From Planctomycetota bacterium (GTDB lineage: Bacteria > Planctomycetota > Phycisphaerae > UBA1845), in contig JBBTCX010000101.1 in the NCBI GenBank assembly GCA_038043045.1, positions 373 to 64,372 on the forward strand: a DNA stretch of 64,000 bases. Direction: 5' to 3'. The notes beneath the pieces are model-generated. The model was not told the origin of the DNA and searched no databases. It saw only the letters and a list, made by a program, of their open reading frames with translations. A program made the position numbers and the translations under genes. Positions 123-62,365 of this stretch are shown here, in pieces; the first letter of the stretch is position 1, and every line of letters begins with the position of its first letter.

Positions 123-1805
123 CTATGGGGTGCATCCCGGTAGGAACGAGCCGTTGCCCGTGAATGCCGCCGCGAAGGCGCGGAAGTCCAATTCGTCCAC
201 GTCGCAATCGTCGTCATAGTCCAACGGCAAACAAGCGGTGGACACGCATGAAGCCGGCCCGGCCATGCAGGTGGAGAACGCCGCGTGATCCGTCAGCGCC
301 ACATGACAGTCGTTGTCACTATCTCCCACGAAAGGCGCCGTCCCACTGTTTTTCATCATGCGGAGTTCGTCGGCCTCCTCGTCAACGAGGGACAAATCGA
401 GGTCGCCGTCGTTGTCGAAGTCCAGCAGCAGCGCGCAAGAGGCCGCGAGGGTCGATGGAATTTGTTGCACGCGGGTGAACGCGCCTAATCCATCGTTAAT
501 GTAGACAGACCAATCGCCGGAGTAACTGGCGGTGATCCAGTCGAGGTCGTTGTCGCCGTCGAGGTCGCCGAAGTCGGTGGCGATGGGGAAGGCCTCTCCT
601 GAATATCGAACCGGGGCGCTCAATTGCCCGGCACCTTCGCCCAAGAGAATGGCGCTTCGATTCTGACCGCTGTTGGCGGCGCTGACGTCCTCGTTCCCGT
701 CGCCGTTGAGGTCGCCGCAAACCAACATCCAGACGGCACCGTCGGCGCTTTGGGTTTCCACGAGGGTGAAGGTGGCATCGCCGTTGCCCTGAAGCACGGA
801 AATGAGAGTTGCCGCTCGAAGCCCGACGACCAAATCCAGAATGCCATCATTTGTCATATCGGCGGCGGCGAGGGCCCATTCCCCCGATCCACCGCCTTCG
901 AAAAATGTCGCCGGTCCGAAAACGCCGGACCCGTTGTTCAGAAGCAACGAGAGATTGTTGGCCCCGAAATTGGTGTTGACGATGTCCATATCGCCGTCGC
1001 CGTCGACATCGAGCACGGCAATTCCTCGCGGGAAGGATCCGACGGTGACTTCCTGTTGAGCCGCAAACGTTCCATCGCCCACGCCCAGAAGAATGGAAAC
1101 CGTCGCGGTGTTGATGTTGGCCACGCAAATATCGACGATGCCGTCGCGGTTGAAGTCGGTAGGTTCCGACGGGCTTGCTCGGTTGTTGACTGGAAACGTC
1201 GGTTGGGTAAAAGGAAAGTAATCGCCCGTTCGGTCGGCTTTGTTGAGGAATACGCGAAGGTCGGCGGTGTCTTCATTGACAATGGTCACGTCGAGAAAGC
1301 CATCGCCGTTTACGTCTGATGCGATTCCGCCGTAGGCCCGACTGGATTCAGTGGGGATCGTTCGGGTGGTCAAAACCTCGTTCAACGTGAACAATCGGGG
1401 CGACAAGCGGGCGTTGGTCCAAAATTGAAAGGAATATCCGCCGGGACGCAGGGTGAGCAATTTCGGCGTGGAAATACCATGAGACAATGAAACCATGACG
1501 CTTTCGCCATGAGAAAACGGCTTGGACGGGTTCAGGGTAATAGTTTTATCGTCGTCGGAGAAACTGATTGTTCCCGTCACCGACCCGCTCCACTTTCCAA
1601 AGACATTCAAAGATTGGCCTAGTTGCACGGAAGACAGCAAGACGGGCGCGCTAAATTTAATTACAATGGCCGAGTCCACCGGTACGCCCACCGTATGCGC
1701 GGCTGGGCTGACGGAAAGAACCAAGAGTTCGCCGCCCCTAGCGTGATTCGGAAAGGCCATCCATGCCATTTCAACGACGATAATCAGGAACGTGAATATT
1801 TTCAT
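123..1805 (-). CDS. secreted FG-GAP/VCBS (integrin-alpha-like) repeat protein with C-terminal dockerin/EF-hand-like module
   Basis: ORF 123..1865. At least seven Ca-binding repeat cores of the DxNxDGxxD type (DVNGDGFLD, DFNRDGIVD, DVDGDGDMD, DMTNDGILD, DLNGDGNED, DLDGDNDLD, DFDNDGDLD). The likely start is the hydrophobic signal MKIFTFLIIVVEMAW at 1805. The C-terminus is DCDVDELDFRAFAAAFTGN...GCTP. Confidence 0.75.
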   Translation of the reverse strand: MKIFTFLIIVVEMAWMAFPNHARGGELLVLSVSPAAHTVGVPVDSAIVIKFSAPVLLSSVQLGQSLNVFGKWSGSVTGTISFSDDDKTITLNPSKPFSHGESVMVSLSHGISTPKLLTLRPGGYSFQFWTNARLSPRLFTLNEVLTTRTIPTESSRAYGGIASDVNGDGFLDVTIVNEDTADLRVFLNKADRTGDYFPFTQPTFPVNNRASPSEPTDFNRDGIVDICVANINTATVSILLGVGDGTFAAQQEVTVGSFPRGIAVLDVDGDGDMDIVNTNFGANNLSLLLNNGSGVFGPATFFEGGGSGEWALAAADMTNDGILDLVVGLRAATLISVLQGNGDATFTLVETQSADGAVWMLVCGDLNGDGNEDVSAANSGQNRSAILLGEGAGQLSAPVRYSGEAFPIATDFGDLDGDNDLDWITASYSGDWSVYINDGLGAFTRVQQIPSTLAASCALLLDFDNDGDLDLSLVDEEADELRMMKNSGTAPFVGDSDNDCHVALTDHAAFSTCMAGPASCVSTACLPLDYDDDCDVDELDFRAFAAAFTGNGSFLPGCTP

Positions 1806-1934
1806 CAATGATAACCCCTGGCCCTGGCTAGGAGCTATTATGTGTAAAATACCGCTCCGCCGCAACTGCTCCGCCCTGATCGATTCGCTCCGGTATTCGC
1901 GTAGGTGCGAATACCCCGGGTCGGAACCCGTTCA

Positions 1935-2684: not shown

Positions 2685-3578
2685 TCACGCCATCCGGCCT
2701 TGACGCCGATTCACCTTGGCCAAGGTCAACAAGCTCAACGCGAGAATAATGAGACCCCACGTCGAAACCGTGGGGATCAATAGAGAGCAATCTGGAACGG
2801 CATCATAGTTAATGTCGACACAATCGTCCAAACCTGGGCACTGATCACACACATCGCCGACGGTGTCACCGTCCGAGTCGAACTGGTTTGAATTGGCCGC
2901 AGCTGGACAGTTGTCGATGGAATCACAAACACCGTCGAAGTCCGAATCATCGGGATTGTCATCCGGGCAGGGATCACAGGTATCCCCAACTCCGTCGCCG
3001 TCGAGGTCGGACACGATGATCGTTGCTGTGACACCTGTAAGCGGAAGGTATGAGCCGAAGGGGCCGCCGAATCGTGTGCCGTCCGTTGGCAGCGGAGGAG
3101 AACTGAAGTTCTCAATACCACCTTGGAACTCGCCGATGGCGCAATCTGAAGCGACGTATCGAATCGTACCCACGTATCGCTCATCGTTTGCAGGAATAAC
3201 GGCAGTTGGTTTAATGATGGATGCGCCAACACGAATCGTACAAAGAGTTTCGTTCGTGGTTACACCCGTTGGATTAAAAAGGAAAAGGGGATATGTACCG
3301 TCCCGACTACCGGCTGTACTGTAGAAAAGGTCCACAGCCATAAGATTTCCACCCGATGGGCTTGCGGACAAAAGAAGGCAAGGGAAATCAAGCTGATAAC
3401 CGAACACCTCCGTGGACTGCGTGCTTACAAAGAAGCACTCCAATTCCGTTTCGCCTCCGCCCTGAATGACCGAACCGGGCCATGGACGACATTCAACGGT
3501 ATTCGATCCGGTCACACCATTCGCGATGATCCCAATCAGCGCGCAAACAAGAGTGAACTCCGAAGCTCCTCTGTTCAT
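2685..3578 (-). CDS. secreted protein with thrombospondin type-3-like Asp repeats and an IPTL-CTERM-like C-terminal sorting tail
   Basis: ORF 2685..3626. The start at 3578 (MNRGASEFTLVCALIG) is preceded by an AAGGAG RBS. The TSP3-like stretch is DLDGDGVGDTCDPCPDDNPDDSDFDGVCDSIDNCP...DSDGDTVGDVCDQCP. The C-terminus is IPTVSTWGLIILALSLLTLAKVNRRQ, i.e. motif, TM helix and basic cluster. Confidence 0.75.
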   Translation of the reverse strand: MNRGASEFTLVCALIGIIANGVTGSNTVECRPWPGSVIQGGGETELECFFVSTQSTEVFGYQLDFPCLLLSASPSGGNLMAVDLFYSTAGSRDGTYPLFLFNPTGVTTNETLCTIRVGASIIKPTAVIPANDERYVGTIRYVASDCAIGEFQGGIENFSSPPLPTDGTRFGGPFGSYLPLTGVTATIIVSDLDGDGVGDTCDPCPDDNPDDSDFDGVCDSIDNCPAAANSNQFDSDGDTVGDVCDQCPGLDDCVDINYDAVPDCSLLIPTVSTWGLIILALSLLTLAKVNRRQGRMA

Positions 3579-4490: not shown

Positions 4491-4585
4491 GGCGCCACAA
4501 TAGTCCGATAACTGCTCTAGTCAATTAAGCTTAGTTGGAACCGATAACTTCCGATTCGTAGTTGAAATGGGGTTCGACTACGCGC

Positions 4586-6031
4586 ATGAAGTCTAGGTTT
4601 GCTCGACATATTGTTTTTCCGTTGCACGAGTGGCTTCTGGGTCGCGCCACACGAGTAATGAATCAGGAGTTGGACGATTCACAGTGGTGGTCGCCTGACG
4701 ACTTGCGAAATCTCCAACAGGTCAAACTCCGGGCTCTGTTGCAGCACGCTTGGGGCCACATTCCGCATTACACGAAAAAATTCCGAGACGCCGGAGTCGC
4801 GACAAAGAGAATTTTTTCTGGCGGCGAGAGTTCCCTTGAACTTCTTTCCAATCTCCCCTTGCTCGAAAAATCCGACATTCGAGGCGGTATCGAAGAAATG
4901 ACTTGGAAGAATACGCCCGGTAGGATCTTTCCACAAAGCACCGGGGGGTCGAGTGGGGAACCGGTCCAGTTTTTTGTTGACCGCCGACGGCAAGCGTGCG
5001 ACCAAGCCGCCCGAATTCGAGCCCATCGTTGGTTCGGAGTGCAGCTCGGTGACCCTGAACTTTTCTTGTGGGGTTCACCCATCGAACAAACGCGAACTGA
5101 CCGTTGGAAGCGACTTCGTGACGGACTGTATCGTCACCAATTATTGAATGCCTTCGACATGTCTCCTCAATCGATGGATTCGTATTGGGATGCATGGGAT
5201 CGATTTCGGCCTGTCGCCCTGTATGGCTATCCCAGCAGCATCGCTCTGTGGGTGGAACACGCGCGGCGGCGCCAGCGCCCCATGCGCAACAACCGGCTTC
5301 GAGCGGTGTTCGTTACCGGCGAGACCTGTCACCCCCATCAATACGAGATCATCCGAAATTATTTCAACGTTTCCGTGGTCGATGGCTACGGAAGTCGTGA
5401 CGCCGGATTTATTTCGCATCAATGCCCATCGGGCCACCGGCATGTGACTTCAGAGCACGTGCATGTGGAGATCGTTCGCAACGGTCAACCCGTTTCCGTG
5501 GGGGAAACCGGCGAGATCGTTGTAACCCATCTGGAGGCGTACGCGATGCCGTTCATTCGATACCGCACCGGCGATCGCGGCCGGTTGTTACCGGGTCGGT
5601 GTCCATGCGGACGAGGGTTGCCGTTGATGGACGCGGTTCAAGGGCGAACGACGGACTTTTTGTGCCGTCCCGATGGCACCATCCAGCATGCGCTGTCCAT
5701 TATTTATCCCCTTCGCGAACTTCACGGGGTTCGACAATTTCGCGTAACCCAGCAGGCCGATTGGTCCGTCCATGTGGAATTGGTTCCCGATCGATTTCCG
5801 GCGTCGATCACGGGCGAGACGGTGTTGCGTGCGGTTCGACCGGTGCTCGGTGAGACGGTGAGTGTCCACGTGGAGTTCGTGGAAGCGATCGCGCCATCGG
5901 CGTCGGGGAAGCATCGCTATGTGCAGTCGTTCGTTGCAGGCGAGAAAGGGATGGATGCAACTGAGACGGTGGATCACGAGAACGCTCTTGCCGAAGTGAA
6001 AGAGGGGCAATCGCATGTTAGCCGTCCTTGA
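4586..6031 (+). CDS. CapK / phenylacetate-CoA-ligase-like (coenzyme F390 synthetase family) adenylate-forming enzyme
   Basis: ORF 4562..6031, with an ATG at 4586. The N-terminus HEWLLGR...QWWSPDDLRNLQQVKLRALLQHAWGHIPHYTKKFRDAGV is typical of PaaK/CapK-like proteins. The central STGGSSGEP P-loop-like adenylation motif is present. Confidence 0.7.
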   Translation: MKSRFARHIVFPLHEWLLGRATRVMNQELDDSQWWSPDDLRNLQQVKLRALLQHAWGHIPHYTKKFRDAGVATKRIFSGGESSLELLSNLPLLEKSDIRGGIEEMTWKNTPGRIFPQSTGGSSGEPVQFFVDRRRQACDQAARIRAHRWFGVQLGDPELFLWGSPIEQTRTDRWKRLRDGLYRHQLLNAFDMSPQSMDSYWDAWDRFRPVALYGYPSSIALWVEHARRRQRPMRNNRLRAVFVTGETCHPHQYEIIRNYFNVSVVDGYGSRDAGFISHQCPSGHRHVTSEHVHVEIVRNGQPVSVGETGEIVVTHLEAYAMPFIRYRTGDRGRLLPGRCPCGRGLPLMDAVQGRTTDFLCRPDGTIQHALSIIYPLRELHGVRQFRVTQQADWSVHVELVPDRFPASITGETVLRAVRPVLGETVSVHVEFVEAIAPSASGKHRYVQSFVAGEKGMDATETVDHENALAEVKEGQSHVSRP

Positions 6032-7112
6032 GTCCGCGTGCGCGACGACCGGGATTCGCCATGCTCCATTCGAAGCGGTCACCGTGCGGTCGTTCACGCG
6101 CGACGATGTCGCACGCTGGGATGAGTACGTCTTGCGACATGAGCAGGGCAGTCTGTTCCATGCCGCGGCGTGGCATCATGGCGTGTGCTCGGCGTTTCCG
6201 CACAAACCCCATTACTTCCTGGCCGAGCGCGGTCGTCGTGTCGTCGGCGTGCTTCCGCTGTTTTTGGTGAACAGTTTTTTGGCGGGTCGGATGCTGGTCA
6301 GCGTGCCGTATGGCGTCGGTGGTGGAATTCTGGCGGACGATTCGGTCGTCGCTGGCGAGCTTTACCGCGCTGCCCGTGAGTTGGCCAAGCGAAGAAACTG
6401 TGCCACCCTTGAACTTCGACAAAGGGGATCCGAAATAGCCGATTCCACTTCGTCCACACCCTACGCGTATTTTACGCGAGAATTGCCGGCCCGTGGAGTA
6501 GACGTTCTATCTTGGCTTCCGCGAAAGGCCCGGGCAGCCACTCGACAGGCACGGGATCGATACGAATTACGCATCATTCATGGAGACGAGCACTTGGCTA
6601 CTGTGTGGGACCTCTATTCAAGAAATGTGCGGCGGCTGGCGTCGATCAATTATCCACGGTCGTTCTTCCGCGGACTCCGCGACGCTACTCCCGGCAAGCA
6701 CTGGGTGTCCCTGGTGATGCAAAAAGATCGCCCGGTGGCCGGTGCGATGACTTTCTTGTTCAAGGACCGCGTGATGCCGTACTTTTTCGGAGCGACGGGA
6801 GATGCCAGAGTATGTCATGCGGCGAACTTTTTGTATTGGCAGTTGATGGAGCGTGGCGCCTCCGAAGGATTTCGCGTTTTCGATTTCGGGCGGTCTCGAC
6901 GGGACAACGTCGGTAGTTATGACTTCAAGCGGTTTCACGGATTCGAGCCGAAGCCGTTAAGCTATGTCGTGGACGTGTTGAACGGTGGTCCGCCACCCGA
7001 CCTTTCGCCCGGCGATCGACGATTTCAATGGGCTCGAGCAATTTGGCCTTATTTGCCGCTGGCGCTGACTCGTGGCCTGGGCGGCCGATTGAGTCGGCAT
7101 CTTACCGGATGA
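6015..7112 (+). CDS. FemAB-like / GNAT-fold protein of the type associated with PEP-CTERM exopolysaccharide loci (TIGR03019-like)
   Basis: 365 aa. It overlaps the upstream gene by 17 nt. The pattern LFHAAAW...YFLAERGRRVVGVLPLFLVNSFLAGRMLVSVPYGVGGG and the C-terminal FDFGRS...GSYDFKRFHGFEP match my recollection of this family. Confidence 0.6.
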   Translation: MLAVLESACATTGIRHAPFEAVTVRSFTRDDVARWDEYVLRHEQGSLFHAAAWHHGVCSAFPHKPHYFLAERGRRVVGVLPLFLVNSFLAGRMLVSVPYGVGGGILADDSVVAGELYRAARELAKRRNCATLELRQRGSEIADSTSSTPYAYFTRELPARGVDVLSWLPRKARAATRQARDRYELRIIHGDEHLATVWDLYSRNVRRLASINYPRSFFRGLRDATPGKHWVSLVMQKDRPVAGAMTFLFKDRVMPYFFGATGDARVCHAANFLYWQLMERGASEGFRVFDFGRSRRDNVGSYDFKRFHGFEPKPLSYVVDVLNGGPPPDLSPGDRRFQWARAIWPYLPLALTRGLGGRLSRHLTG

Positions 7113-7116
7113 GTCG

Positions 7117-8445
7117 ATGAGAATTCTCTACTTAGCCCATCGCATTCCGTATCCGCCGAACAAGGGGGACAAGCTGCGCGCGTTTCGACACATCGAGCAT
7201 TTGGCCAAGGACCATGAGGTTTGGTGCGCCTGTTTCATCGATGATCCTGATGACGCGAAATATGTCAAACCTCTGTCCGAACATTGTCGAGAACTAGCCG
7301 CGATTCCTTTGAATCGGCGTCGCGCCACCCTGCGAGGGCTGCTGGGACTGGCCACGGGTTCGACAATCACCGAGTCGTTCTATTCGGATCGACAAATGAA
7401 ACAGACCCTCGAGCGATGGTGCCAGAGTGTGGCGTTTGACGTGGTGTTAGCTTTCTCATCGAGCATGGCCCCTTACGGATTTCGAGTTTCGGCCGCACGT
7501 CGCGTTCTTGATCTTTGTGACGTCGACAGTCGAAAATGGATGGAGTATGGGCGAACTTCGTCGCGACCGGTCCGGTGGCTGTATTCGTTGGAGGGTCGAC
7601 GTCTTGCCATGCGCGAGCACGCTTGGTGTGAATCTTATGATGCCACGTTGGTGGTCACGAAGCAGGAAGCTCTGCTCTTGGATGAAACTTTTTCGAATTC
7701 CACGCCCACCCCAACCGGACGAATACACGTGGTTGGAAACGGAGTCTCGCTACCGGAAATCAAGAGGGATGCGGAATTCAAGCGATCGGGAGTTCCGACC
7801 GTGGGTTTCGTCGGTGCGATGAACTATCGACCGAACGTGGATGCGGTGTGTTGGTTTGTCGAGTATTGCTGGCCGGAGATCCTTGAGGTGATTCCCAACG
7901 CCGCATTCAAAATCGTTGGTCACGCCCCGACAAGAAAAGTCCGAGCGCTGGGCCGACGCTTGGCCGTTCAAGTGGTCGGGCCGGTGAAGGACATCGTTTC
8001 CGAGATTCAAAGTTTTGATGTGAGCGTTGCGCCATTACGGATGGTCTTCGGAATTCCGAATAAAGTTTTGGAGTCTCTGTCCGCCGGATGTCCGGTGGTG
8101 ACCACCTCCGCAGCTGCAAGTCGGATCGGTCTTCAGCACGCGGTACATTGTTACATTGCCGATGCGCCGAAGTCGTTTTCCGAAAAAGTTGTGCAGTTGC
8201 TCCAAGATGGTCAACAAAGAAGCCAAATCGGGTTGGCAGGGAGGGCGCTTGTTTCGCGGACCTACCAATGGGTGGATCAGCTTAGATGTTTAGAGTGGGC
8301 ACTGGAAGGAAACCAAACAAGCACACCGCTGAAAGAAAGTGGGTTGGTCGATTCGAGTGAAGGCGAAACTGGGGTTGTCCCCCTTGAATCGGGAAACAAC
8401 ATCGGAACGCCGTCCTCGAGAAGCGCTGTCGCAAATGTTTCGTAG
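7117..8445 (+). CDS. GT4-type glycosyltransferase, PEP-CTERM/EpsH1-system-associated sugar transferase-like (TIGR03087-like)
   Basis: 442 aa. The N-terminus MRILYLAHRIPYPPNKGDKLRAFRHIEHLAKDHEV is characteristic of this subfamily. The C-terminal half is GT-B-like (VGFVGAMNYRPNVDAV...GIPNKVLESLSAGCPVV). Confidence 0.7.
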   Translation: MRILYLAHRIPYPPNKGDKLRAFRHIEHLAKDHEVWCACFIDDPDDAKYVKPLSEHCRELAAIPLNRRRATLRGLLGLATGSTITESFYSDRQMKQTLERWCQSVAFDVVLAFSSSMAPYGFRVSAARRVLDLCDVDSRKWMEYGRTSSRPVRWLYSLEGRRLAMREHAWCESYDATLVVTKQEALLLDETFSNSTPTPTGRIHVVGNGVSLPEIKRDAEFKRSGVPTVGFVGAMNYRPNVDAVCWFVEYCWPEILEVIPNAAFKIVGHAPTRKVRALGRRLAVQVVGPVKDIVSEIQSFDVSVAPLRMVFGIPNKVLESLSAGCPVVTTSAAASRIGLQHAVHCYIADAPKSFSEKVVQLLQDGQQRSQIGLAGRALVSRTYQWVDQLRCLEWALEGNQTSTPLKESGLVDSSEGETGVVPLESGNNIGTPSSRSAVANVS

Positions 8446-14761: not shown

Positions 14762-15796
14762 TCAGAGAATACTCAAGGGGGTGAACGTTATGGCCACGAA
14801 AAGCGCCACGGCGATGGCATAGACCAAAAGTACGATAACCTGCGAAGCAATGACCGTGGCCCACGGGCGATCGAATCGCAGGTAAAACTGATACGCCCTG
14901 GCCAAGCGGTAAGTCGCTAGCACAAAAGCAATCCCCGCCCCGTACCAAAACGCGCCGACCATCGGCCAACGCATCAGTTGCCACAACGGGTAGAAGGCCG
15001 CGAAAGTTGAAACGACAACGGCCCACCACGCCACGATGTCCCAGCAATAGACGGTACATCGGAAAACGTGCACCGTTTGAATGCTCGCTCTTTTCATGGA
15101 CCAGCGAAAAACATTCAGGGACATCGCAGCCAAGAGCGGCCACGAAAACGTGATCGTGCAGACGAGAGCGATTTCTCCAAAAACCCAATTGGATCCAGGG
15201 TAGCGTTTGAGTGACGAATAAACATCCTTCGCGACACTGAGCAACGTGGGTTGGGGCACGAACGAGTCGACCACCGCTTGGGGAGAGCCAAATTGTTTCA
15301 TTCTTTGCTTGAACCAATCGGGTGCATCTGTTCGAAAAGAGTAGAAGATGTGTTGCTGCAGCATGTTTTGCCGAGTCGTGATCGCCTGGCGCCAAGTGTC
15401 CAGCCCTTGACGGAGAAGCACGCTCACCCCGATCATCAGAATGAAACACGATACGCCCATCGCATAGACGAACAACCGCAAGCGACTCGGCTGCTGGGTG
15501 GGTAACAACCCTGACCAAAACTTTTTGGGCCTCCACCCTGCCAAGAGCGTCCTGAAAAACGACCGAATGTTCTTCTCGGGATGATGTTCAAAAAGAAAGG
15601 GATGAATCCGCTTGGCAGGATCTAAAATCTCCGACCATTCAAACCGATACCCGCACTCCGAGCATCGAGGTTCCGCTTGTCCGCGGAGATCGTAGGAACA
15701 AAGCGGACAAAGCACTTCCATTTGTAACGAATCGCCCGGACTCGGCGCTGAATCGACGGCAGGCTCCATACGTTCAATGGCCGGAGGCGATTTCAT
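14762..15796 (-). CDS. zinc-ribbon polytopic membrane protein, paralog A (unknown function)
   Basis: 344 aa. It has an N-terminal CPLCSYDLRGQAEPRCSECGYRFEW followed by several hydrophobic helices. It is colinear with the neighbouring paralog. Confidence 0.6.
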   Translation of the reverse strand: MKSPPAIERMEPAVDSAPSPGDSLQMEVLCPLCSYDLRGQAEPRCSECGYRFEWSEILDPAKRIHPFLFEHHPEKNIRSFFRTLLAGWRPKKFWSGLLPTQQPSRLRLFVYAMGVSCFILMIGVSVLLRQGLDTWRQAITTRQNMLQQHIFYSFRTDAPDWFKQRMKQFGSPQAVVDSFVPQPTLLSVAKDVYSSLKRYPGSNWVFGEIALVCTITFSWPLLAAMSLNVFRWSMKRASIQTVHVFRCTVYCWDIVAWWAVVVSTFAAFYPLWQLMRWPMVGAFWYGAGIAFVLATYRLARAYQFYLRFDRPWATVIASQVIVLLVYAIAVALFVAITFTPLSIL

Positions 15797-15837: not shown

Positions 15838-16845
15838 TCATTTCCATAGCCAGCGACCAGCCCAACACCCATATACCTGCATCGCGGTTAGGTACAGGAG
15901 CGCCACGATAATCTGCGATGAAACAACCGTGGCAATAGGTCGGTGGAACCTCAAGTACAATTTGTACGACAATGCAAGTCGATAGAGAACGATTATGACC
16001 ACGATGAAAAGTGCCCATCGTATTACAGGCTGCACACTGCCCCCGGCAAATATCCAAAACGGCCAGAACGCCACAGCAATCGCCCAAGGAACGAAAACCC
16101 AAACGACGGCATCGAAGCTGTAAATCGTGGACCGCAGAATGTGTTGGCCGCCGATTCTTGCCTTCCTCATCGACCACCTAAAGACTTGCAGCGCCAACAT
16201 GGTCAATATTGGCCAAATTGCAACGCCGACATGAAGCTCTAAAATCATCATCCAATCGCGTGATTTCCAAAAACCACCCATTCTTTGAAACACTGATTTC
16301 AGCGTCGAGTCAGGAAAGAGTGCGTTTGCGAATGCGGTGTGCGATCCGTATTGGGCGATTCCTGAAAGATACCAAGGAGGTGCATCACTTCGCCCCTGAA
16401 ACTTGGCCATGTTGGCAAGGAAGGTGCTTCGCTGTTCCACTATTTGGTATGCTGTAATGATGGTCAGTCGAGCCACGGCTACCATGCTCACTGAACCGAT
16501 TACTCCGATCGTCAACAAGTAATAAATGGTAAGCCTTCGACGGTTCACCGGCTGTACCGGATGCAAGCCAGACCAAAATTTCCTTGACCGAAGGCCGCCC
16601 ACAAGCGTTCGCCAGAATGGTCGAATCAATCGAGGTTGATATTCAAACAGGTAGGCGTGTTCTCGGAATCTCGGGTCAAGCAGTTCTGCCCACTCAAACC
16701 GATACCCGCACTCCGAGCAACGGGGTTCACTCTGCCCGCGGAGATCATACCCGCACAACGGGCACGGCAGCGGAGCATCGCCAACGGGTGCCTCCATCCG
16801 TTCGCTCAAAACCTGCTCTCGGGCGTCGGAAACATTTTCCATCAT
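15838..16845 (-). CDS. zinc-ribbon polytopic membrane protein, paralog B (unknown function)
   Basis: 335 aa. It has an N-terminal CPLCGYDLRGQSEPRCSECGYRFEW. Shared motifs with paralog A include RKFWSGL, VFRWSM.KA and YRLA..Y.LYLRF.RP.ATV.SSQ.IV. Confidence 0.6.
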   Translation of the reverse strand: MMENVSDAREQVLSERMEAPVGDAPLPCPLCGYDLRGQSEPRCSECGYRFEWAELLDPRFREHAYLFEYQPRLIRPFWRTLVGGLRSRKFWSGLHPVQPVNRRRLTIYYLLTIGVIGSVSMVAVARLTIITAYQIVEQRSTFLANMAKFQGRSDAPPWYLSGIAQYGSHTAFANALFPDSTLKSVFQRMGGFWKSRDWMMILELHVGVAIWPILTMLALQVFRWSMRKARIGGQHILRSTIYSFDAVVWVFVPWAIAVAFWPFWIFAGGSVQPVIRWALFIVVIIVLYRLALSYKLYLRFHRPIATVVSSQIIVALLYLTAMQVYGCWAGRWLWK

Positions 16846-40877: not shown

Positions 40878-41052
40878 GCCTCGTCCAAGGGCGAGTGAAG
40901 AGGCAACCGGGTCGATCGATGAGTTCGAGATCGGCCTCTTCATAACGGGTTACGAAACGACCTCATGGATGGGGTCGGAGCATGGCGCGTTGGAGCTGCG
41001 CGTGAAGAACATAAGAGTCGGACAAATCGACCGATCTTGGCCGTTGAAGGTC

Positions 41053-41823
41053 ATGGTGCTAGCCATCGCCTTCGTTGCGCCGACGTATGGTCAAACCGCG
41101 CCGATTCTGAACAACCCTCTGGGCATTCCCGACGTCAGTCGAATTCTCCCCCCGGCCGGCGATCCTCAAACGGTCAGCACGTCGCTCCAAATCCTCGTGC
41201 TTTTGACTGTTCTCACGCTCATTCCATCCATTCTCGTCATGGTGACGTCTTTCCCGCGCATCATCATCGTGCTCGGTTTGCTTCGTCAGGCGATCGGCGT
41301 GCCCCAACTTCCCCCTGGTCAGATTCTGTTGGCGCTATCTCTATTTCTGACCGTTCTGGTTATGGCGCCGACTTGGCAAGCGATCCATGTCGAGGCTGTT
41401 CAACCCTACTTCGACAACCGCCTCGGACAGGAGCAGGCCATGACCATCGCTTCTCACCACTTGAAAAATTTCATGCACCGTCAAATAGATCAAGCGGGGA
41501 ATCAAGAAGACATTTATTTGTTTCTGGAATATTCCCAAAGGCAACCGATTCCGCAGGGGACGACGCTGAGCCTAGAAGACGTTCCGCTATCGGCCATGAT
41601 CCCCGCGTTTCTCTTGAGCGAACTCAAAACGGCTTTCATCATGGGTTTTCGGATTTACTTACCGTTCTTGGTCATCGATATGGTCATCGCCACGATCCTC
41701 GTGTCGATGGGCATGATGATGTTGCCGCCGGTATTGATTTCGTTGCCGTTCAAACTGTTGCTGTTTGTGCTGGCCGATGGCTGGCGACTCGTAGTGGAGA
41801 CCTTGATGCACAGCTTTGTCTAG
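41053..41823 (+). CDS. fliP: flagellar type III export pore protein FliP
   Basis: ORF 40969..41823, with the probable start at 41053 (MVLAIAFVAP signal). Motifs are FPRIIIVLGLLRQAIG and FLLSELKTAFIMGFRIYLPFLVIDMVIATILVSMGMMMLPP. Confidence 0.92.
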   Translation: MVLAIAFVAPTYGQTAPILNNPLGIPDVSRILPPAGDPQTVSTSLQILVLLTVLTLIPSILVMVTSFPRIIIVLGLLRQAIGVPQLPPGQILLALSLFLTVLVMAPTWQAIHVEAVQPYFDNRLGQEQAMTIASHHLKNFMHRQIDQAGNQEDIYLFLEYSQRQPIPQGTTLSLEDVPLSAMIPAFLLSELKTAFIMGFRIYLPFLVIDMVIATILVSMGMMMLPPVLISLPFKLLLFVLADGWRLVVETLMHSFV

Positions 41824-41891
41824 GGTGCCGACAAACCCGAAAGAATGGCTGTGTCGCAGACCGCGGTCAACCCGAGAAAAAGGACCCGACT

Positions 41892-42152
41892 ATGGAGCTT
41901 ACTCATGCGATGGAGTTGGGGCGAGACGCCTTGTGGATGACGATCGTCATGTCGGCGCCGATTCTCGTTATCGGATTGGTGGTCGGCCTGGTCATCGCCT
42001 TGTTCCAAGCCGTCACCCAGCTTCAAGAGCAAACGTTAACCTTTGTTCCGAAGATTGCGGCCATGATCGCCGCCGCCGTGCTCTTTATCCCCTGGATTAC
42101 GGAGCAAATGATCGAGTATTCCCGCAAACTGTTTACGGGGATGCCATGGTAG
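41892..42152 (+). CDS. fliQ: flagellar type III export protein FliQ
   Basis: These are the last 86 codons of track ORF 40965..42152 (MELTHAMELGRDALWMTIVMSAPILVIGLVVGLVIALFQAVTQLQEQTLTFVPK). The upstream part of that ORF is an out-of-frame shadow of fliP. Confidence 0.9.
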   Translation: MELTHAMELGRDALWMTIVMSAPILVIGLVVGLVIALFQAVTQLQEQTLTFVPKIAAMIAAAVLFIPWITEQMIEYSRKLFTGMPW

Positions 42153-53947: not shown

Positions 53948-56320
53948 TCACGCTCGATTCGACCCAACGGCCAACGGATACCGGTTGAATCGCAGCTTGG
54001 CGGCCACGAGCAGTGACAATCCCAACACGATTAGCCCCCAGGTTGATGTCGTGGGAATTTGAACGCACGGGCCGGCGCAGTCGGAATCTTCGCAATCGGT
54101 GAGGCCGTCACAGTCGTTGTCGATTCCGTCGGAGCACCATACGGTGTATTCCTGAGTCGGCATAAGTCCGCAGTCTTCGACGCAGAGGCATCGCTCAAAG
54201 CTCGTGCAAAGTCCGTCGCCGCAACATTCGTCGGGGATGCCGTCGGAGTCTGCATCTTGAGAGGTGCCGTCGGCGATGTCGCAGGCGTCGGGGAGGTTGT
54301 TGGTGTTGCAATCGCCGGTTGTGCCGTTGATGAGTTCGCACGCGTCCTGGAACCCATTGGGTTGACAGTCGATTAACAGCTCTCCCTCTGGGACGGCGAT
54401 ACCGTACGGGAACGGTTGATCGGGGACCAACTCCTCGATGTTGGTTCCGTCGAGGTTGGCGCGATGAATCCCCGCGCCGGTCCAGTAGATTTTTCCGGAG
54501 GCGATGTCGACGGTGACGTCCCATACGGGTTTTGATAACGGACCGACGATGGTTTGAATATTGGTACCGTCGATATTCGAACGACGAATGGTCACCGGGT
54601 CGGTGGCCGCTCCTTCGGACCAGTAGAGTTTGCCAATACCCGGGTGGACGGCGATTCCTGTGGGTTCATGGACGTCTTGGGAAGGAACGATGGTTTCAAC
54701 GGAAGAGCCGTCTAAATTGGCGCGGGCGATTCGATCGATGTTTGAACCTTGGGGTATACTTTCCGTCCAATACATTTTTCCGGCGACTCGGTCGATGGCC
54801 AAATCGTTCACATGTCCCAGGCCTGATAAAATGGTTTGAAGTCCGGAGCCGTCCAGGTTTCCGCGCCGAATTTCTCCAGTCCGATGTGTCCAGTAGATTT
54901 TCCCTTCATCCGTATTCAACGCTAGTCCGAAGGATGAACCTAGGCCGGAGAAGATCTGTTGCTTGGCGGAGCCGTCGAAGTTGGATCGGAATATGCCATG
55001 GTCTGCAAGCCCGTTGCCGGTTTTGGATATCCAATAAACCAATCGGGTGCGAAGGTCCGCGACAATAGCCGACGGACCGAAAAAGTCGGTTGAATCGATG
55101 ATCGCGGGAGGCAAAGCATTCAGATGCAAACGCAAAACGTCTCTGAGTGCATTGTCGGTCCAGAAAATGAAGGCCGGCGGAGCATCGGCCAAAGTTGAGT
55201 CGCAGCAGATGGTCGAGGAACAAGTCGAGCCCGGTCCACGTGGCATGCCGCCTTGGAGTTGGCAGCATTGGGGATCGAGCATGGTGCAGTCGGTTTGAGA
55301 CAGACAACAGGCTTCGGGAAGATGGCAAATAGTCCCCGGCGAATTTGGTGTTCCGCCGGTCGAGCCGCAGCATATCGGGTCGACGTTGCTCGAGCAGATA
55401 CCCACCTCGGAGCAGCAAGATGTTGCGACGCCGCACTGGCTACCCGCGGGTTGGGGGACGCCGTTCATCGCCATGCAGCAGAGCGGGTCAATAAATTCGC
55501 AAGTGCCGCTTGCAAGGCAACATGCCACTTTCGCGGAACAGGAACCGGACGATCGCGGCGTTCCACCGACCGCTCGGCAGGCATCGGCTGTCACCATGGA
55601 GCAACTGTCGTTGGTGAGACAACAGGGGCCGACGCAAGGGTCAGAGTCTTCGCACGACTTTCCAGCGTGAAAGTCCCCGCCGAATGTTTGAGCGCAGCAC
55701 GCTTCAGAAATCGTGTCGCTGGTACAGATGTTGCCGACGCAGCAAGTCCCCGGCTGATTGTTCGTTGTAAGGATCGCGCCGATGTTGGCGACGATGGGGA
55801 TTAGAAGTCCGTTGCCGGGGCCATCATCCCTGAACCGGGTACTGTCGTCGACCACGGGTGGGCTGCTGATGTCAATTGCCGCGGTAAGGAATTGACCTTC
55901 AACGCAAGGCGAGGCTTCATAGGTTATCGTCATGAAATAATGTGGAATATTAGCGGGAAGAAAACAAGGCGGCTCTGAAACTCCGCGGGTGCGGCCGGCG
56001 AAGCAATTCGCTAGGCTTGTCGCGGCCAGTCCGCTGGCGCAAAGGGCCGGAATTCCGGTTGAGCTTGTGGGATCCACGGTGATAAGGGTTCCCGTCAATG
56101 TGCCGGTTCCGTTGTCCAGCAGGCAGGAAACGGCGATCTGACCCGCAACGCTTAACTGGTCCACGTTGCTGGAAACGAAGAACTCAATTTGTATCTCCTC
56201 GCCGCCAACGATGGTGTTCCCGCCGATAGGTACGGCCGTAATGGTCAAAGCGCCGCGAGCCGCCGTGCAAGCCAGGGATAGAACGGAAACTATAACAAGT
56301 CGAACCAGCGGATGCGTCAT
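53948..56320 (-). CDS. large exoprotein with five modules (details in evidence)
   Basis: 790 aa with a GAGGAG RBS and signal peptide LVRLVIVSVLSLACTAARG. The modules in order are: an unnamed N-terminal domain; five ~35-aa CC..C..CC..GG.P..GS.C repeats; a YWTD (LDL-receptor class B) beta-propeller with blades LVYWIS, KIYWTH, KMYWTE, KLYWSE and KIYWTG; a TSP3-like stretch (DSDGIPDEC); and an IPTL-CTERM-like tail, IPTTSTWGLIVLGLSLLVAAKLRFNR. Confidence 0.8.
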   Translation of the reverse strand: MTHPLVRLVIVSVLSLACTAARGALTITAVPIGGNTIVGGEEIQIEFFVSSNVDQLSVAGQIAVSCLLDNGTGTLTGTLITVDPTSSTGIPALCASGLAATSLANCFAGRTRGVSEPPCFLPANIPHYFMTITYEASPCVEGQFLTAAIDISSPPVVDDSTRFRDDGPGNGLLIPIVANIGAILTTNNQPGTCCVGNICTSDTISEACCAQTFGGDFHAGKSCEDSDPCVGPCCLTNDSCSMVTADACRAVGGTPRSSGSCSAKVACCLASGTCEFIDPLCCMAMNGVPQPAGSQCGVATSCCSEVGICSSNVDPICCGSTGGTPNSPGTICHLPEACCLSQTDCTMLDPQCCQLQGGMPRGPGSTCSSTICCDSTLADAPPAFIFWTDNALRDVLRLHLNALPPAIIDSTDFFGPSAIVADLRTRLVYWISKTGNGLADHGIFRSNFDGSAKQQIFSGLGSSFGLALNTDEGKIYWTHRTGEIRRGNLDGSGLQTILSGLGHVNDLAIDRVAGKMYWTESIPQGSNIDRIARANLDGSSVETIVPSQDVHEPTGIAVHPGIGKLYWSEGAATDPVTIRRSNIDGTNIQTIVGPLSKPVWDVTVDIASGKIYWTGAGIHRANLDGTNIEELVPDQPFPYGIAVPEGELLIDCQPNGFQDACELINGTTGDCNTNNLPDACDIADGTSQDADSDGIPDECCGDGLCTSFERCLCVEDCGLMPTQEYTVWCSDGIDNDCDGLTDCEDSDCAGPCVQIPTTSTWGLIVLGLSLLVAAKLRFNRYPLAVGSNRA

Positions 56321-56450: not shown

Positions 56451-56653
56451 CACTCTTCACCGGATGCGTCGGGCCTTGCATCGAATTGCACTTTCTCGAA
56501 TGAATTGCCGAAAAGCAAGCGCGCGAAAAACCCTGGAAAAACAGGCGTTTCTAGCACTCCATCGCATCGTGTTGCATCGCAAAAGAATCGGAGGAGGAGG
56601 GATTCGAACCCCCGGTACGGTTACCCGCACAACGGTTTTCAAAACCGTCCCCT
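56451..56653. repeat. left direct repeat of integrative element (attR-side), containing the 3' 65 nt of tRNA-Ser as a displaced gene fragment (56589..56653, minus strand)
   Basis: 56554..56653 is identical to 63768..63867 (100/100, hand alignment, offset 7214). 56461..56553 aligns to 63675..63767 with 13 mismatches and no indels. Confidence 0.85.
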
Positions 56654-56890: not shown

Positions 56891-57237
56891 CCCATAAATT
56901 CGAACCCAAAACCGGCAAAAACGCGACGGTTCTCGTTAGGTTAACCCCCACCCGACGAAGGGGGTGTCACGATCGCGCGGATCGCAAGGCGAATTCGCAG
57001 CGGTTATCTGTGAGGATGATTTCCCGTTATGATCGCGCGCGCGGAGTAACAAGTTTCACGCGCCTACGCGCGAGGGTCGGGACCACTTGTCATAGAGCCG
57101 TCCGCCGGAGACAATCCCGGCGTGCAGCTTGTTCGCTCTTGCAGTTGATTCAAAAGAGCTTTTCCCGCCCGTTCGGCGTGCCATTCCATTGCGAACGGCT
57201 GTACAGCGCGGAACGCGGCGGGTTTGCGCGTGACGGT

Positions 57238-58509
57238 ATGACTACAACATCGTGGAACCAACATTCCTTTCGGCTACTCATTTCCATTGCGACATGCTCA
57301 CCCGTGCTTGGTGAACAAGCGAGACTCGAACCGATTGGAGTCTTGCCCGGTGGATACACTGCCAGTTTCGCCTTCGACATTTCGGCAAACGGTGAAGTCG
57401 TCGTTGGTTACTGTGACGCTACGGGCAATGTTGGTCAAGCATTTCGATGGACACTGAAGGATGGAATTGAAGCGTTGCCTTGGTTGACACCTGGAGTCGA
57501 TCAACGATCAGATGCCTACGCCGTTTCGGCGGATGGATCGGTCATCGTTGGTCGCGTTTCACAAACTGGTGGAACGAATTCCACCGCCGTCCGGTGGGAG
57601 AATGGTATCCCGATGTCTCTTGGTGCGCTCTGTACCGACAATCCGTACGGTTCTGGTAGTTACGCATGGGATGTTTCTTCCGACGGTCAGATCGTCGTTG
57701 GTTACAGCAATAGTTGCGGTTTCCGTTGGACGGCAAAGACCGGAATTCAACCCATTCCAACACCAGCGGGATTTCCGGGCACAAGTTGCGATGCACGTGC
57801 AATATCCGGTGACGGGACCACGATAGTTGGGTCTTGCGGCGCTTGTGGCGCATATCGATGGACTGAGGGTGCTGATCCACAATCGCAACATTTTCCAGGC
57901 GCGGTGTATACGGTCGTAACAGCCGTTTCCTATGATGGCCAAGTGCTCTTCGGAAATTACAACCTTCCGTTCGGAACGCGGTCATTTCGTTGGACGCCTT
58001 CCGAGGGGTTTCAAGACTTGGGTCAATTGCCCGATCAATCCGGGTCGACGAATGTGGAGGATTGTTCGTCCGATGGGTCGATGGTTGTTGGCACTTATTA
58101 CGCACTGGACGGCGACAATGCGTTTGTATGGAGTGAATCCACCGGACTTCAAAGTCTGCGAGATATTCTCACTGATGGTGGAGCGGAACTTTGTGATTGG
58201 AGGCTTTGGAATGCTTCGTCTGTTTCCGCGAATGGCACTCGAATCGTTGGATACGCTGATGACCCCGGCCCAATGCTGTACGACGGATATGTAGCCTTCT
58301 TGTCCGATGCACCGATGGAATGTTGCAACGGGTGTGACGATGGAAACTCCTGCACGGCGGATACATGCGTGAGCGGTTTTTGTGAACACACACCCGTGGT
58401 TCACGGGGACCTTGCTCCATGCGGCGGAGACGGCAAAGTCGACATCGATGATTTGATTTCGTTGCTCGAAGCATTCAAAGGTAATTCGCTTTGCGCCTGT
58501 ACGCCGTGA
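57238..58509 (+). CDS. HAF-family-like extracellular repeat protein with Cys-rich and dockerin/EF-hand-like C-terminus (element cargo)
   Basis: ORF 57010..58509, with an ATG at 57238. It contains ~40-aa repeats of the form A.A(V/I)S.DG..(V/I)VG.......AFRW....G...L. The C-terminus is CCNGCDDGNSCTADTCVSGFCEHT...GDGKVDIDDLISLLEAFKGNSLCACTP. Confidence 0.65.
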   Translation: MTTTSWNQHSFRLLISIATCSPVLGEQARLEPIGVLPGGYTASFAFDISANGEVVVGYCDATGNVGQAFRWTLKDGIEALPWLTPGVDQRSDAYAVSADGSVIVGRVSQTGGTNSTAVRWENGIPMSLGALCTDNPYGSGSYAWDVSSDGQIVVGYSNSCGFRWTAKTGIQPIPTPAGFPGTSCDARAISGDGTTIVGSCGACGAYRWTEGADPQSQHFPGAVYTVVTAVSYDGQVLFGNYNLPFGTRSFRWTPSEGFQDLGQLPDQSGSTNVEDCSSDGSMVVGTYYALDGDNAFVWSESTGLQSLRDILTDGGAELCDWRLWNASSVSANGTRIVGYADDPGPMLYDGYVAFLSDAPMECCNGCDDGNSCTADTCVSGFCEHTPVVHGDLAPCGGDGKVDIDDLISLLEAFKGNSLCACTP

Positions 58510-58514
58510 AAACG

Positions 58515-59408
58515 ATGCGCCTTTCGAATCAAAGATTCCCAACGATTTCGTTGTCAGAAATCCTCGACGTTGGGATGAAACAAGAGGTAAACCGAATTGA
58601 ACGAGTACACAGGCGATTTGCTCGCGTGGCGTTACGCAGGAACGACCTTACGCCAGATCAACGAAGTGTACTCGAAGTCGTAATGACGGGTGGAATCCCA
58701 GTAGATGGCCGGCTTTTCGAGAATAAGCACTACGAAAGAGTCCCTGAGCGGTTTTATTTGTTGAATCGTGCTGGAAAGACCGTCCGGCGATATGAGTCTC
58801 GCCGACTCGGTGTACCGTTGCATAAACCGCGCGCCTACGACGTAATCTTGAGAGAATTCTTCGGGGCGGCAAGAAAAATCGAACAACGCCCGTTTGGTGC
58901 TGCGCCGTCTTTCACGGTTGAAACTTTTTGGCCACAATCGATAGCGATGTATCTGGAGTTCCTGAGTACAGGTGTAAAGAATCAAGAAAAATACAATGCT
59001 TATGACATTGCGGACGTGGTAAAAAGATTGCAATGCGACGGCTTCGCGGCTGAACTCTTGAGGACACTTTGGCAAGAATGCCCGGAAGAAGCGAAGGAAA
59101 TGGGGTTGCCGAAGCCGCGTGGCGTGACTGCGGAAGAAAAACCGGCGTGGGCACGATTGGTCATTCATTCATCAAAGGGGGCTGACGACACCGCAGAACT
59201 TGATGGAAAGACATTCCGTCTCACCGGCGCAAACGATGCGCGGTTTCTCGAAACGCTTCAAGAACAAAAAGGCATGACGCTATCCGCAACTTCGCTTGGC
59301 GACGCAATAGATGAACGTCCCGATCGCGTCTACAAGAGGCTTAAGAAATCACTCCAGCGCATTATTGAGAAACCCGGAAAGGGTCGCAAGGGATATCGGA
59401 TGCTCTGA
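58515..59408 (+). CDS. hypothetical protein (~297 aa), no recognisable domain (element-borne)
   Basis: ORF 58491..59408, with an uncertain start (ATG at 58515 or 58575). The stretch looks AT-richer. The C-terminus is basic (KRLKKSLQRIIEKPGKGRKGYRML). Confidence 0.5.
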   Translation: MRLSNQRFPTISLSEILDVGMKQEVNRIERVHRRFARVALRRNDLTPDQRSVLEVVMTGGIPVDGRLFENKHYERVPERFYLLNRAGKTVRRYESRRLGVPLHKPRAYDVILREFFGAARKIEQRPFGAAPSFTVETFWPQSIAMYLEFLSTGVKNQEKYNAYDIADVVKRLQCDGFAAELLRTLWQECPEEAKEMGLPKPRGVTAEEKPAWARLVIHSSKGADDTAELDGKTFRLTGANDARFLETLQEQKGMTLSATSLGDAIDERPDRVYKRLKKSLQRIIEKPGKGRKGYRML

Positions 59409-59471
59409 CATTCGATGTACATACGCTGTACGTAGACTCATCTCGCATCGCGCCCCTATTGTTGGGGCATC

Positions 59472-59651
59472 ATGAAGAAGATAAAAACTCCGAGTTTGCC
59501 GGAACCCAAGGAAATTCGCCAAGAGATTGACTCGCTCAGGTCGCGCATAGGCGAGCTGAAAGCACTCCTGCGCGTTGCTGAAGTTCAGCAGATTTCGAAA
59601 CAACTTCGCTGCAAGTCTGAAGAGAGAATCCTTGCGGAGGGACGAACATGA
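59472..59651 (+). CDS. 59-aa coiled-coil ORF, translationally coupled to the Xis-like gene (not in the ORF track, below its size cut-off)
   Basis: Hand translation gives MKKIKTPSLPEPKEIRQEIDSLRSRIGELKALLRVAEVQQISKQLRCKSEERILAEGRT. Its TGA overlaps the next ATG (ATGA at 59648..59651). Confidence 0.4.
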   Translation: MKKIKTPSLPEPKEIRQEIDSLRSRIGELKALLRVAEVQQISKQLRCKSEERILAEGRT

Positions 59652-59962
59652 CCGCGATGCCAAAACTTGCGGGGAGTGAACCCGATCGGCGGGAAAACGT
59701 GGACGCGGGGAAGCGGTCGGGGATGGAACCGGCGAGCCGGGTGGAACCGCTGGCCGTGGATGCGAAGGCGTTGGCGGGGTTGATCGGCATATCCGTCCGC
59801 ACGATTCGAACGCACGACGCCGGTGGCAAGTTGCCGCGTGGCGTCCGAATCGGCGGAAGAAAAGTGTGGATCGTGGATGAAATCAAACGTTGGCTTGAGT
59901 CCGGCGCGCCGAATCGGGCGACGTGGGAAGCGATGAAGGGGAGCGCGAGTAAATTCAAATAG
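59648..59962 (+). CDS. excisionase/AlpA-type helix-turn-helix DNA-binding protein (HTH_17-like)
   Basis: LAVDAKALAGLIGISVRTIRTHDAGGKLPRGVRIGGRKVWIVDEIKRWLESG. Confidence 0.7.
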   Translation: MTAMPKLAGSEPDRRENVDAGKRSGMEPASRVEPLAVDAKALAGLIGISVRTIRTHDAGGKLPRGVRIGGRKVWIVDEIKRWLESGAPNRATWEAMKGSASKFK

Positions 59963-60020
59963 GCACAAAAAAGTACCCGCGATCGGCGGCAACCGAGAGC
60001 GCGGGCGAAAGCGATTAACC

Positions 60021-61556: not shown

Positions 61557-61600
61557 TAAAAAATGCGCCCTTGACGGTGCGCCTAACATGAGGTATATTT

Positions 61601-61909: not shown

Positions 61910-61918
61910 GGAGTCATC

Positions 61919-62344: not shown

Positions 62345-62365
62345 GAGCGCGGGAGCAAGTGCAAC

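Follow-up and report, generated by a model that had tools for sequence, protein, structure and literature searches.

Two planctomycetal exoproteins join a predicted cohesin fold to IPTL-CTERM-class sorting tails

Non-cellulosomal cohesin–dockerin systems in diderm bacteria are poorly understood. In one of the closest known arrangements, that of the Ruminococcus flavefaciens anchoring scaffoldin ScaE, a cohesin is joined to an LPXTG sortase signal. IPTL-CTERM is, as far as we know, a sorting signal defined by computation only, and the seed of its model TIGR04174 presumably comes from Proteobacteria. In freshwater Planctomycetes of the Nemodlikiaceae, exoproteins with cohesin, dockerin, and thrombospondin type 3 (TSP3) modules have been proposed to form a non-cellulosomal surface complex, the "planctosome" (Andrei et al. 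2019, ISME J, PMC6461901). The one IPTL-CTERM protein with an experimental localization that we found, the S-layer protein mela_00855 of Methylomirabilis lanthanidiphila, resides in the outermost cell layer (PMC8671808). Here, we analyzed a 64-kb stretch of DNA from the metagenome-assembled genome (MAG) of an uncultured member of the Planctomycetota, hereafter the window, and focused on two of its genes, A and B, whose products combine a predicted cohesin fold with an IPTL-CTERM-class tail. The window covers nearly all of a 64.6-kb contig, and our coverage of the MAG is that contig.

A and B belong to a family with a common plan: a signal peptide, a divergent module of predicted cohesin fold, a calcium-binding Asp/Cys spacer, and then either an IPTL-CTERM-class signal or a dockerin-like module. 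Both open reading frames (ORFs) were found as the initial annotation had claimed, with 297 and 790 aa, and both start with a hydrophobic, signal-peptide-like segment read from the sequence. In A, the signal peptide and the cohesin-like module are followed by TSP3-like Asp repeats and the IPT-type sorting tail; in B, they are followed by five Cys-rich repeats, a YWTD propeller, acidic disulfide repeats, and the IPT-type tail (Table 1). The N-terminal region of ~160 aa that the annotation reported as common to the two proteins is homologous over ~165 aa, and the strings quoted for it are exact. BLASTP gave an N-terminal high-scoring segment pair with 24% identity over 231 aa (E = 3e-8) and a separate C-terminal one over the Asp/Cys spacer and tail (E = 2e-9). 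The similarity persists in a proper alignment of the excised domains, A aa 25–190 and B aa 24–186, which are 33% identical (MAFFT), and a hidden Markov model (HMM) of the family matches only A and B in the window (E = 1.8e-47 and 2.4e-52). Chance similarity or low complexity as the source of the shared N-terminus was ruled out by BLASTP, by the family HMM on the window, and by the exhaustive HMM search described below.

A ends in ...LLIPTVSTWGLIILALSLLTLAKVNRRQGRMA and B in ...VQIPTTSTWGLIVLGLSLLVAAKLRFNRYPLAVGSNRA, each directly before the stop, with the motif starting 30 and 36 aa from the end, respectively. The motif, transmembrane (TM) helix, and Arg/Lys cluster read from these tails in the initial annotation are all present, although its quotation left out the last 4 (A) and 10 (B) residues. 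The motifs IPTVSTWG (A) and IPTTSTWG (B) keep the I, P, T, S, W, and G of the consensus and have V or T in place of L. The hydrophobic segments have a hydropathy of 2.25 over 15 aa and lead into KVNRRQGR in A and KLRFNR in B, the latter with 10 further residues past the basic cluster. A six-frame scan of the window for P[TAS]x[ST]xW[GA] returned the A and B tails and one unrelated match, and among the called genes of the window, only A and B combine the motif with a hydrophobic and basic C-terminus. Among the sorting-domain models, TIGR04174 and PF18203 match both tails best. The signal segment of NF033207 scores 22.6 bits against the A tail, and that of the NCBIfam model "midcut-by-XrtH protein" aligns to both. 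Among other proteins with the same N-terminal domain, 6 of 10 tails pass the TIGR04174 cutoff, with 20.9–29.4 bits. We rejected an assignment to PEP-CTERM, as its model TIGR02595 matches neither tail even at E ≤ 10.

To place the tails in a wider context, we surveyed the GTDB species representatives with a degenerate DNA pattern covering IPT[VTA]SxWG and the start of the helix. The pattern occurs at no fewer than 111 loci, several per genome; among the matches listed, most are from Phycisphaerae/Planctomycetota or from Saprospiraceae/Lewinellaceae/Chitinophagales, with a few from Acidobacteriota and Desulfobacterota. In nearly all of the 69 motif-bearing ORFs from the listed loci, the motif lies ~27–38 aa before the stop, and the typical tail has the form IPTVSEWGLVVLALLLL..GK..F.RR. 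The window itself holds two IPT-tailed members, and at least five IPT-tailed paralogs are found under AABZ47-type NCBI records. The near-fixed distance from the stop and the several copies per genome are the behavior of a many-to-one sorting signal. The tails thus appear to be a signal shared by many substrates rather than chance hydrophobic ends, and they belong to a known, already catalogued class of sorting domains. As they score below the curated cutoffs (see below), they are not clean members of that class; with their STWG, they diverge slightly from a V-for-L variant of IPTL-CTERM that is itself widespread, IPT[VT]SxWG being typical of Phycisphaerae.

The N-terminal domain forms a new, lineage-restricted family. 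When 1.84 billion cluster representatives were searched exhaustively with an HMM, 66 clusters matched at E ≤ 1e-3, of which 31 were at E ≤ 1e-10, and at least 11 of the 66 come from this one MAG (AABZ47_ locus tags). The domain mostly occupies aa ~25–190, directly after the signal peptide; a few proteins have it twice or at an internal position. Of the word-indexed searches, the one with the first domain alignment found nothing, and the one with the second found only A and the family member P0169. A degenerate DNA pattern for Y..T..Y.VSDCA.G.F, which the window itself matches, gave no loci in the GTDB representatives, indicating that the MAG is not itself a GTDB representative and that the family is rare in genomes. 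Eight of the nine named members are called "hypothetical protein" at NCBI, and the ninth is named for its TSP3 repeats only.

The domain had been described as unnamed, which stands insofar as no Pfam or NCBIfam model matches it; its fold can now be predicted. The AlphaFold2 (AF2) model of the A module, based on a 51-sequence alignment, is all-beta with a pLDDT of 94.3 and a pTM of 0.88. In a Foldseek comparison with the PDB, cohesins fill ranks 1–32, with E-values of 1e-6 to 7e-4, and span types I, II, and III as well as archaeal and Clostridium perfringens non-cellulosomal cohesins. The matches include 6kgf_A with E = 1e-6 and 5m2o_A with TM-scores of 0.66/0.78 and a root mean square deviation (rmsd) of 3.6 Å; for most cohesins, the TM-score is 0.44–0.57 and the rmsd 5–9 Å. 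Other beta-sandwiches (nanobodies, CBM2, BslA) first appear at E ~1e-3. We therefore predict a cohesin fold for the N-terminal module, a link at the level of fold only, and this prediction changes the functional reading of the domain.

The spacers between the folded modules and the tails differ between the two proteins. TSP3-like Asp repeats had been noted before each tail, which holds for A: its pre-tail region scores 20.7 bits against Pfam TSP_3 (PF02412), below the cutoff of 25, and matches NF047638 (MtsC TSP3) with E = 3e-9. In a search with full-length A, TSP3 proteins made up the bulk of the matches (E as low as 4e-32), and the 483 homologues at E ≤ 1e-3, nearly all annotated with PF02412, align to the TSP3-like region; as the repeats swamp the matches, this search says nothing on the N-terminal domain. 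In B, the spacer has just one TSP3-like element together with an "acidic double-disulfide repeat" (NF033662, 33.8 bits; cutoff 41). The ~35-aa Cys-rich repeat of B, for whose stretch no Pfam match was reported, also directly follows the cohesin-like module in the family members P0139, P0154, and P0169 and recurs in P0126.

The C-termini of the family fall into two main kinds. A strict regular expression applied to 65 family representatives classified 16 as IPT-tailed and 23 as ending in dockerin/EF-hand-like modules, leaving 26 unclassified; by eye, about a dozen of the latter also have dockerin/EF-hand-like modules, bringing these to ~35. The commonest module is a duplicated unit of 65–70 aa, YGD...G.IDVDDLLCVL.GF....CP..DI.PCGGDG.IDVDDLLA.LDAFAG...CP.PC.P, whose alignment shows two D.D..G.ID..D-helix segments, that is, a Cys-stapled, duplicated F-hand. 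The AF2 model of one such tail module (pLDDT 87.4) has two helices (16–27 and 48–58) with a loop before each. A profile of the module finds dockerins as its best matches in the PDB, mixed with EF-hand proteins and at marginal E-values of 0.01–0.1; 8ajy_B is aligned across both halves with E ~0.01. One member, P0162, narrowly passes Pfam Dockerin_1 (PF00404, 23.0 bits; cutoff 22.9) and also has a weak canonical Cohesin match. Several of the best cohesin matches of the N-terminal module and of the best dockerin matches of the tail module share crystal complexes, namely 5lxv, 5m2o, and the 6kgc–6kgf series. The paralogs of the MAG include five with IPT tails (A, B, P0145, P0164, and P0182) and at least four with dockerin-like modules (P0123, P0126, P0129, and P0162). 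A candidate partner is also found in the window, as half a dockerin-like module at the end of a HAF-repeat protein (Table 1).

A second protein of the window, at 123–1865 (-), was considered as a bearer of the same module and rejected, the tail HMM giving no match at E ≤ 0.01. It has 580 aa with FG-GAP/VCBS-repeat and Big_5 domains, and its acidic, Cys-containing, F-hand-like C-terminus, ...DYDDDCDVDELDFRAFAAAFTGNGSFLPGCTP, appears to be a different dockerin-like type; its final CTP equals the end of the HAF-repeat protein. On metagenome contigs, the cohesin-like family genes occur in tandem arrays: one contig has three in tandem, two of them IPT-tailed (L138:2824-7570), and three others have two adjacent genes each (L114, L121, and L137). 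Two family-bearing metagenome contigs, both from Hainich groundwater samples, match the window at 99.97–100%.

Taken together, A and B are likely to be exported surface proteins sorted by an enzyme of the exosortase class. In the mechanism that we infer, both proteins would be exported by the Sec pathway, and the C-terminal helix would retain them in the cytoplasmic membrane. A gene located elsewhere in the genome would supply an enzyme of the exosortase family, by analogy XrtH-like, which would then cut at or near the IPT-S-WG motif, and the cut protein would be handed on for surface attachment. The exposed cohesin-like module may then bind the disulfide-stapled, duplicated F-hand modules of many paralogs and of some other exoproteins. 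In such a non-cellulosomal assembly, the IPT-tailed members would be the scaffoldins that provide the anchor, and the dockerin-tailed members would serve as adaptors or cargo. We lean toward A and B being exosortase-sorted, anchoring cohesin proteins of a planctosome-like surface assembly. That the modeled module actually docks dockerins has, in our estimate, somewhat less than an even chance.

Several results, given in this and the following paragraph, count against this interpretation. The close fit to the IPTL-CTERM consensus seen in the initial annotation holds for the class, and a TIGR04174 scan, proposed there as a check, matches both tails; the outcome is borderline, as the scores are below the curated cutoff of 20.5 bits, with 13.9 (A) and 15.3 (B) on whole proteins and 15.5 and 18.2 on isolated tails. 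PF18203 likewise scores 18.7 bits on A and 13.9 on B (cutoff 20.8). NCBIfam and Pfam searches of the multi-TM and unknown proteins of the window found no exosortase gene, the matches being to flagellar export, a transporter, or nothing. None was seen near tail-bearing genes at 113 genome loci by a crude regular expression for an exosortase motif, and none near cohesin-like genes at 35 metagenome loci in a crude check by ten Pfam look-ups of multi-TM neighbors, which returned transporters, PMT_2, MarC, and TPR. Missing exosortase neighbors are expected of a many-to-one system. The tails under the curated cutoffs and a sorting enzyme found neither in the window nor in the DNA around related loci would also fit plain membrane anchors, which would tether A and B to the cytoplasmic membrane on its periplasmic side, with no dedicated protease or transpeptidase to cut them. 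We consider this quite improbable: the IPT-S-WG motif before the helix is invariant in Planctomycetota, Bacteroidota, Acidobacteriota, and Desulfobacterota alike, its distance from the C-terminus is fixed, and there are many copies per genome, none of which a simple anchor would require. In addition, tails of other proteins with this N-terminal domain pass the curated model, and modules such as cohesin, TSP3, and YWTD typify proteins exposed at the surface. No cohesin-like module occurs in any of the IPT-tailed ORFs at the 113 genome loci, and the tail and the module are thus not obligately linked.

For the cohesin–dockerin part, the Pfam Cohesin model (PF00963) has no match to A or B at E ≤ 1, a sequence search of the PDB with the family profile returns no cohesin, and hhalign against a verified CipA cohesin, Coh7 (1aoh), gives a probability of 0.1%. 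Foldseek with the tail-module model has dockerins as 6 of its 7 matches, at TM-scores of 0.48–0.63 and rmsd of 2.7–3.6 Å, but the E-values of 0.9–7 are statistically weak; Dockerin_1 matches 2 of 17 tails at E ≤ 10 and EF-hand models 8 of 17. One family member (L136:1-2508) is fused to a C-terminal Peptidase_S8 (subtilase), showing that the module is not confined to scaffold-like proteins. A generic beta-sandwich adhesin or spacer, with a cohesin-like topology and no dockerin binding, in lineage-specific adhesins with interchangeable C-termini, would account for the missing sequence-level link to cohesins, the moderate TM-scores and high rmsd for most of them, the module preceding a subtilase as well as YWTD propellers, and the weak dockerin assignment of the partner module. 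We hold this to be rather unlikely, since the best 32 PDB matches are all cohesins, with other beta-sandwiches following only thereafter, and since the family is strongly associated with duplicated F-hand modules, a pairing that is a hallmark of cohesin–dockerin systems; the shared crystal complexes of the best cohesin and dockerin matches also speak against it.

The neighborhood of A bears on the identity of the enzyme. The initial annotation reported no exosortase-like gene in the window, which the scans bear out, and left out two marker genes of the XrtA/PEP-CTERM system beside A. These match TIGR03019 and TIGR03087 above cutoff, lie 2.4–4.9 kb from A, and form a three-gene block with a PaaK-like acyl-CoA ligase (Table 1). 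The block (4562..8445, +) lies between gcvH and a sigma-factor-like gene, on the opposite strand to A and with gcvH between them, and stands by itself, no other part of an XrtA/EpsH locus being present there. The names of both models are tied to genomes with an XrtA system, and judging from these genes, the genome probably has exosortase machinery. Motif and C-terminus scans found no PEP-CTERM proteins in the window. The proximity of the markers could mean that the tails are processed by an XrtA-type (PEP-CTERM) exosortase rather than an XrtH-type one, IPT being a local variant of PEP. This is unlikely, given that TIGR02595 has no match while IPTL_CTERM and the midcut-by-XrtH signal segment do, that gcvH and the change of strand separate the block from A, and that B has no such neighbors. 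For the XrtH-type enzyme that we prefer, the statement in the annotation that no processing enzyme has been assigned to IPTL-CTERM is probably out of date, as NCBIfam holds the "midcut-by-XrtH protein" model whose signal segment aligns to the tails. TIGR04177 is presumably the model for "exosortase H, IPTLxxWG-CTERM-specific", with XrtH assigned by NCBI; our literature search for XrtH, "exosortase H", or IPTLxxWG found no paper confirming the assignment, and we know of no experimental validation of the XrtH/IPTL-CTERM pairing.

Table 1. Coordinates of A, B, their modules, and related features in the window
Feature	Position	Strand	Evidence
Gene A, 297-aa exoprotein from ATG	2685..3578	-	ORF; same protein sequence as NCBI AABZ47_05415 ("hypothetical protein") of a Planctomycetota MAG
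A aa 1-24, predicted Sec signal peptide MNRGASEFTLVCALIGIIANGVTG	3507..3578	-	Hydrophobic N-terminus read from sequence; family domain starts at aa 25
A aa 25-190, predicted divergent cohesin-fold module	3009..3506	-	AF2 model, Foldseek, family of 66 clusters
A aa 191-262, thrombospondin type 3-like Asp/Cys calcium-binding repeats	2793..3008	-	Pfam TSP_3, NF047638, TSP3 homologues
A aa 268-297, IPTVSTWG + TM helix + KVNRRQGRMA, IPTL-CTERM-class tail	2688..2777	-	TIGR04174 and PF18203, sub-cutoff; NF033207 signal segment
Gene B, 790-aa exoprotein	53948..56320	-	ORF and profile matches
B aa 24-186, cohesin-like module, paralog of the A module	55763..56251	-	BLASTP E = 3e-8; family HMM E = 2.4e-52
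B aa 193-375, five ~35-aa Cys-rich repeats (CC..g.C......CC....GG.P...GS.C)	55196..55744	-	Regular expression and split
B ~aa 395-645, YWTD (LDL-receptor class B) beta-propeller, approximate boundaries	54386..55138	-	Pfam Ldl_recept_b, 57.2 bits (cutoff 21)
B ~aa 650-752, Asp/Cys-rich spacer, one TSP3-like element + acidic double-disulfide repeat	54065..54373	-	NF033662, 33.8 bits, sub-cutoff (41)
B aa 755-790, IPTTSTWG + TM helix + KLRFNR..., IPTL-CTERM-class tail	53951..54058	-	TIGR04174, PF18203, sub-cutoff
Half dockerin-like module PCGGDGKVDIDDLISLLEAFKGNSLCACTP, C-terminus of HAF-repeat protein 57010..58509, candidate partner	58366..58497	+	15-tail HMM built without it, E = 6e-12
PaaK-like acyl-CoA ligase, first of three-gene block	4562..6031	+	Sub-cutoff matches to AMP-dependent CoA ligases
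FemAB-family XrtA/PEP-CTERM system-associated protein	6015..7112	+	TIGR03019, 274.2 bits (cutoff 260.35)
PEP-CTERM/XrtA system glycosyltransferase	7117..8445	+	TIGR03087, 376.3 bits (cutoff 316.65)

Other features of the window were noted in passing. Immediately upstream of B, a 7.2-kb segment is flanked by a 198-nt direct repeat (56456–56653 and 63670–63867, 93% identical), whose right copy runs into the 3' part of tRNA-Ser(tga) at 63802–63890 (-). Besides the HAF-repeat protein that ends in half a dockerin-like module, the segment (ORFs 57010–64000) encodes a RepA-like ATPase (AAA_25) and a tyrosine integrase with an 83-bit Phage_integrase match. It looks like an island integrated at a tRNA gene; another contig (L144) gives an alternative assembly path through the repeat, which fits that reading. 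Two tandem paralogs at 14762–15796 (-) and 15838–16845 (-) share 39% identity (E = 6e-77), have an N-terminal zinc ribbon (CPLCxYDLRGQxEPRCSECGYRFEW) and 4–5 predicted TM helices each, and match no Pfam or NCBIfam model. Within the long flagellar export cluster, tRNA-Ser(gga) at 40959–41053 (+) lies just upstream of a fliQ-like gene; the mechanical ORF at 40965–42152 overlaps this tRNA, and its Bac_export_3 match is confined to aa 315–386.

What is new in this family is that a predicted cohesin fold is paired both with an anchor of the exosortase class and with a dockerin-like module stapled by Cys residues, the parts being otherwise of known kinds. The family bears the IPTL-CTERM-class signal on compact proteins, A having 297 aa and one folded domain, and would be usable for testing cleavage and surface attachment. 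The family exchanges an exosortase-type anchor for a dockerin-like end, resembling the anchoring/adaptor logic of cellulosomes. As no Pfam or NCBIfam model detects the cohesin-like family, surveys built on PF00963 and PF00404 may count too few such systems among the Planctomycetota, and a family model would give names to its "hypothetical protein" members. A broader and more tentative proposal, which we would not expect to hold in full, is that a groundwater Planctomycetota lineage builds a cohesin–dockerin surface assembly from two profile-invisible parts, a novel family of cohesins and a variant of dockerins with disulfide staples, anchored on the diderm surface by an IPTL-CTERM/XrtH-type signal. 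If true, this proposal would yield the first exosortase-anchored scaffoldin and a defined, testable family of substrates for the IPTL-CTERM system.

Compared with IPTL-CTERM (TIGR04174/PF18203) proteins, A and B have the same tripartite tails of IPTxSxWG, TM helix, and basic residues, in several copies per genome. They differ in having V or T for the consensus L and T for E (STWG instead of SEWG), in scoring below the cutoffs, and in continuing for 4–10 residues past the basic cluster; their host is a Planctomycetota MAG, and the cognate enzyme is not seen in the window. With mela_00855, A shares the size of ~300 aa, export by a signal peptide, and an IPTL-CTERM-class C-terminus; nothing points to A or B forming an S-layer. 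MYXO-CTERM TSP3 proteins such as MtsC (NF047638), which are sorted by myxosortase, similarly have TSP3 repeats directly before a short tripartite C-terminal signal; in contrast, A scores 36 bits against a 350-bit cutoff, the A and B tails have no invariant Cys, and the N-terminal module and the enzyme class are different.

The resemblance to the ScaE type of R. flavefaciens lies in the overall design: a single module of predicted cohesin fold, a spacer, and a C-terminal sorting signal for a dedicated membrane enzyme, together making a predicted socket for dockerin-bearing proteins. Structures from the same species, 5lxv (ScaC) and 5m2o (ScaB Coh3), are among the best fold matches. Unlike that system, A and B come from a diderm host and have an exosortase-class instead of a sortase signal, their cohesin-like module escapes sequence-based detection, no link to cellulases is seen, and the partner modules are Cys-stapled. 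The planctosome model (PMC6461901) likewise concerns planctomycetal exoproteins combining cohesin, dockerin, and TSP3 modules, but relies on Pfam-detectable cohesins and dockerins and an LTD-domain anchor, whereas the proteins described here combine a Pfam-invisible cohesin-like family with an IPTL-CTERM-class anchor.

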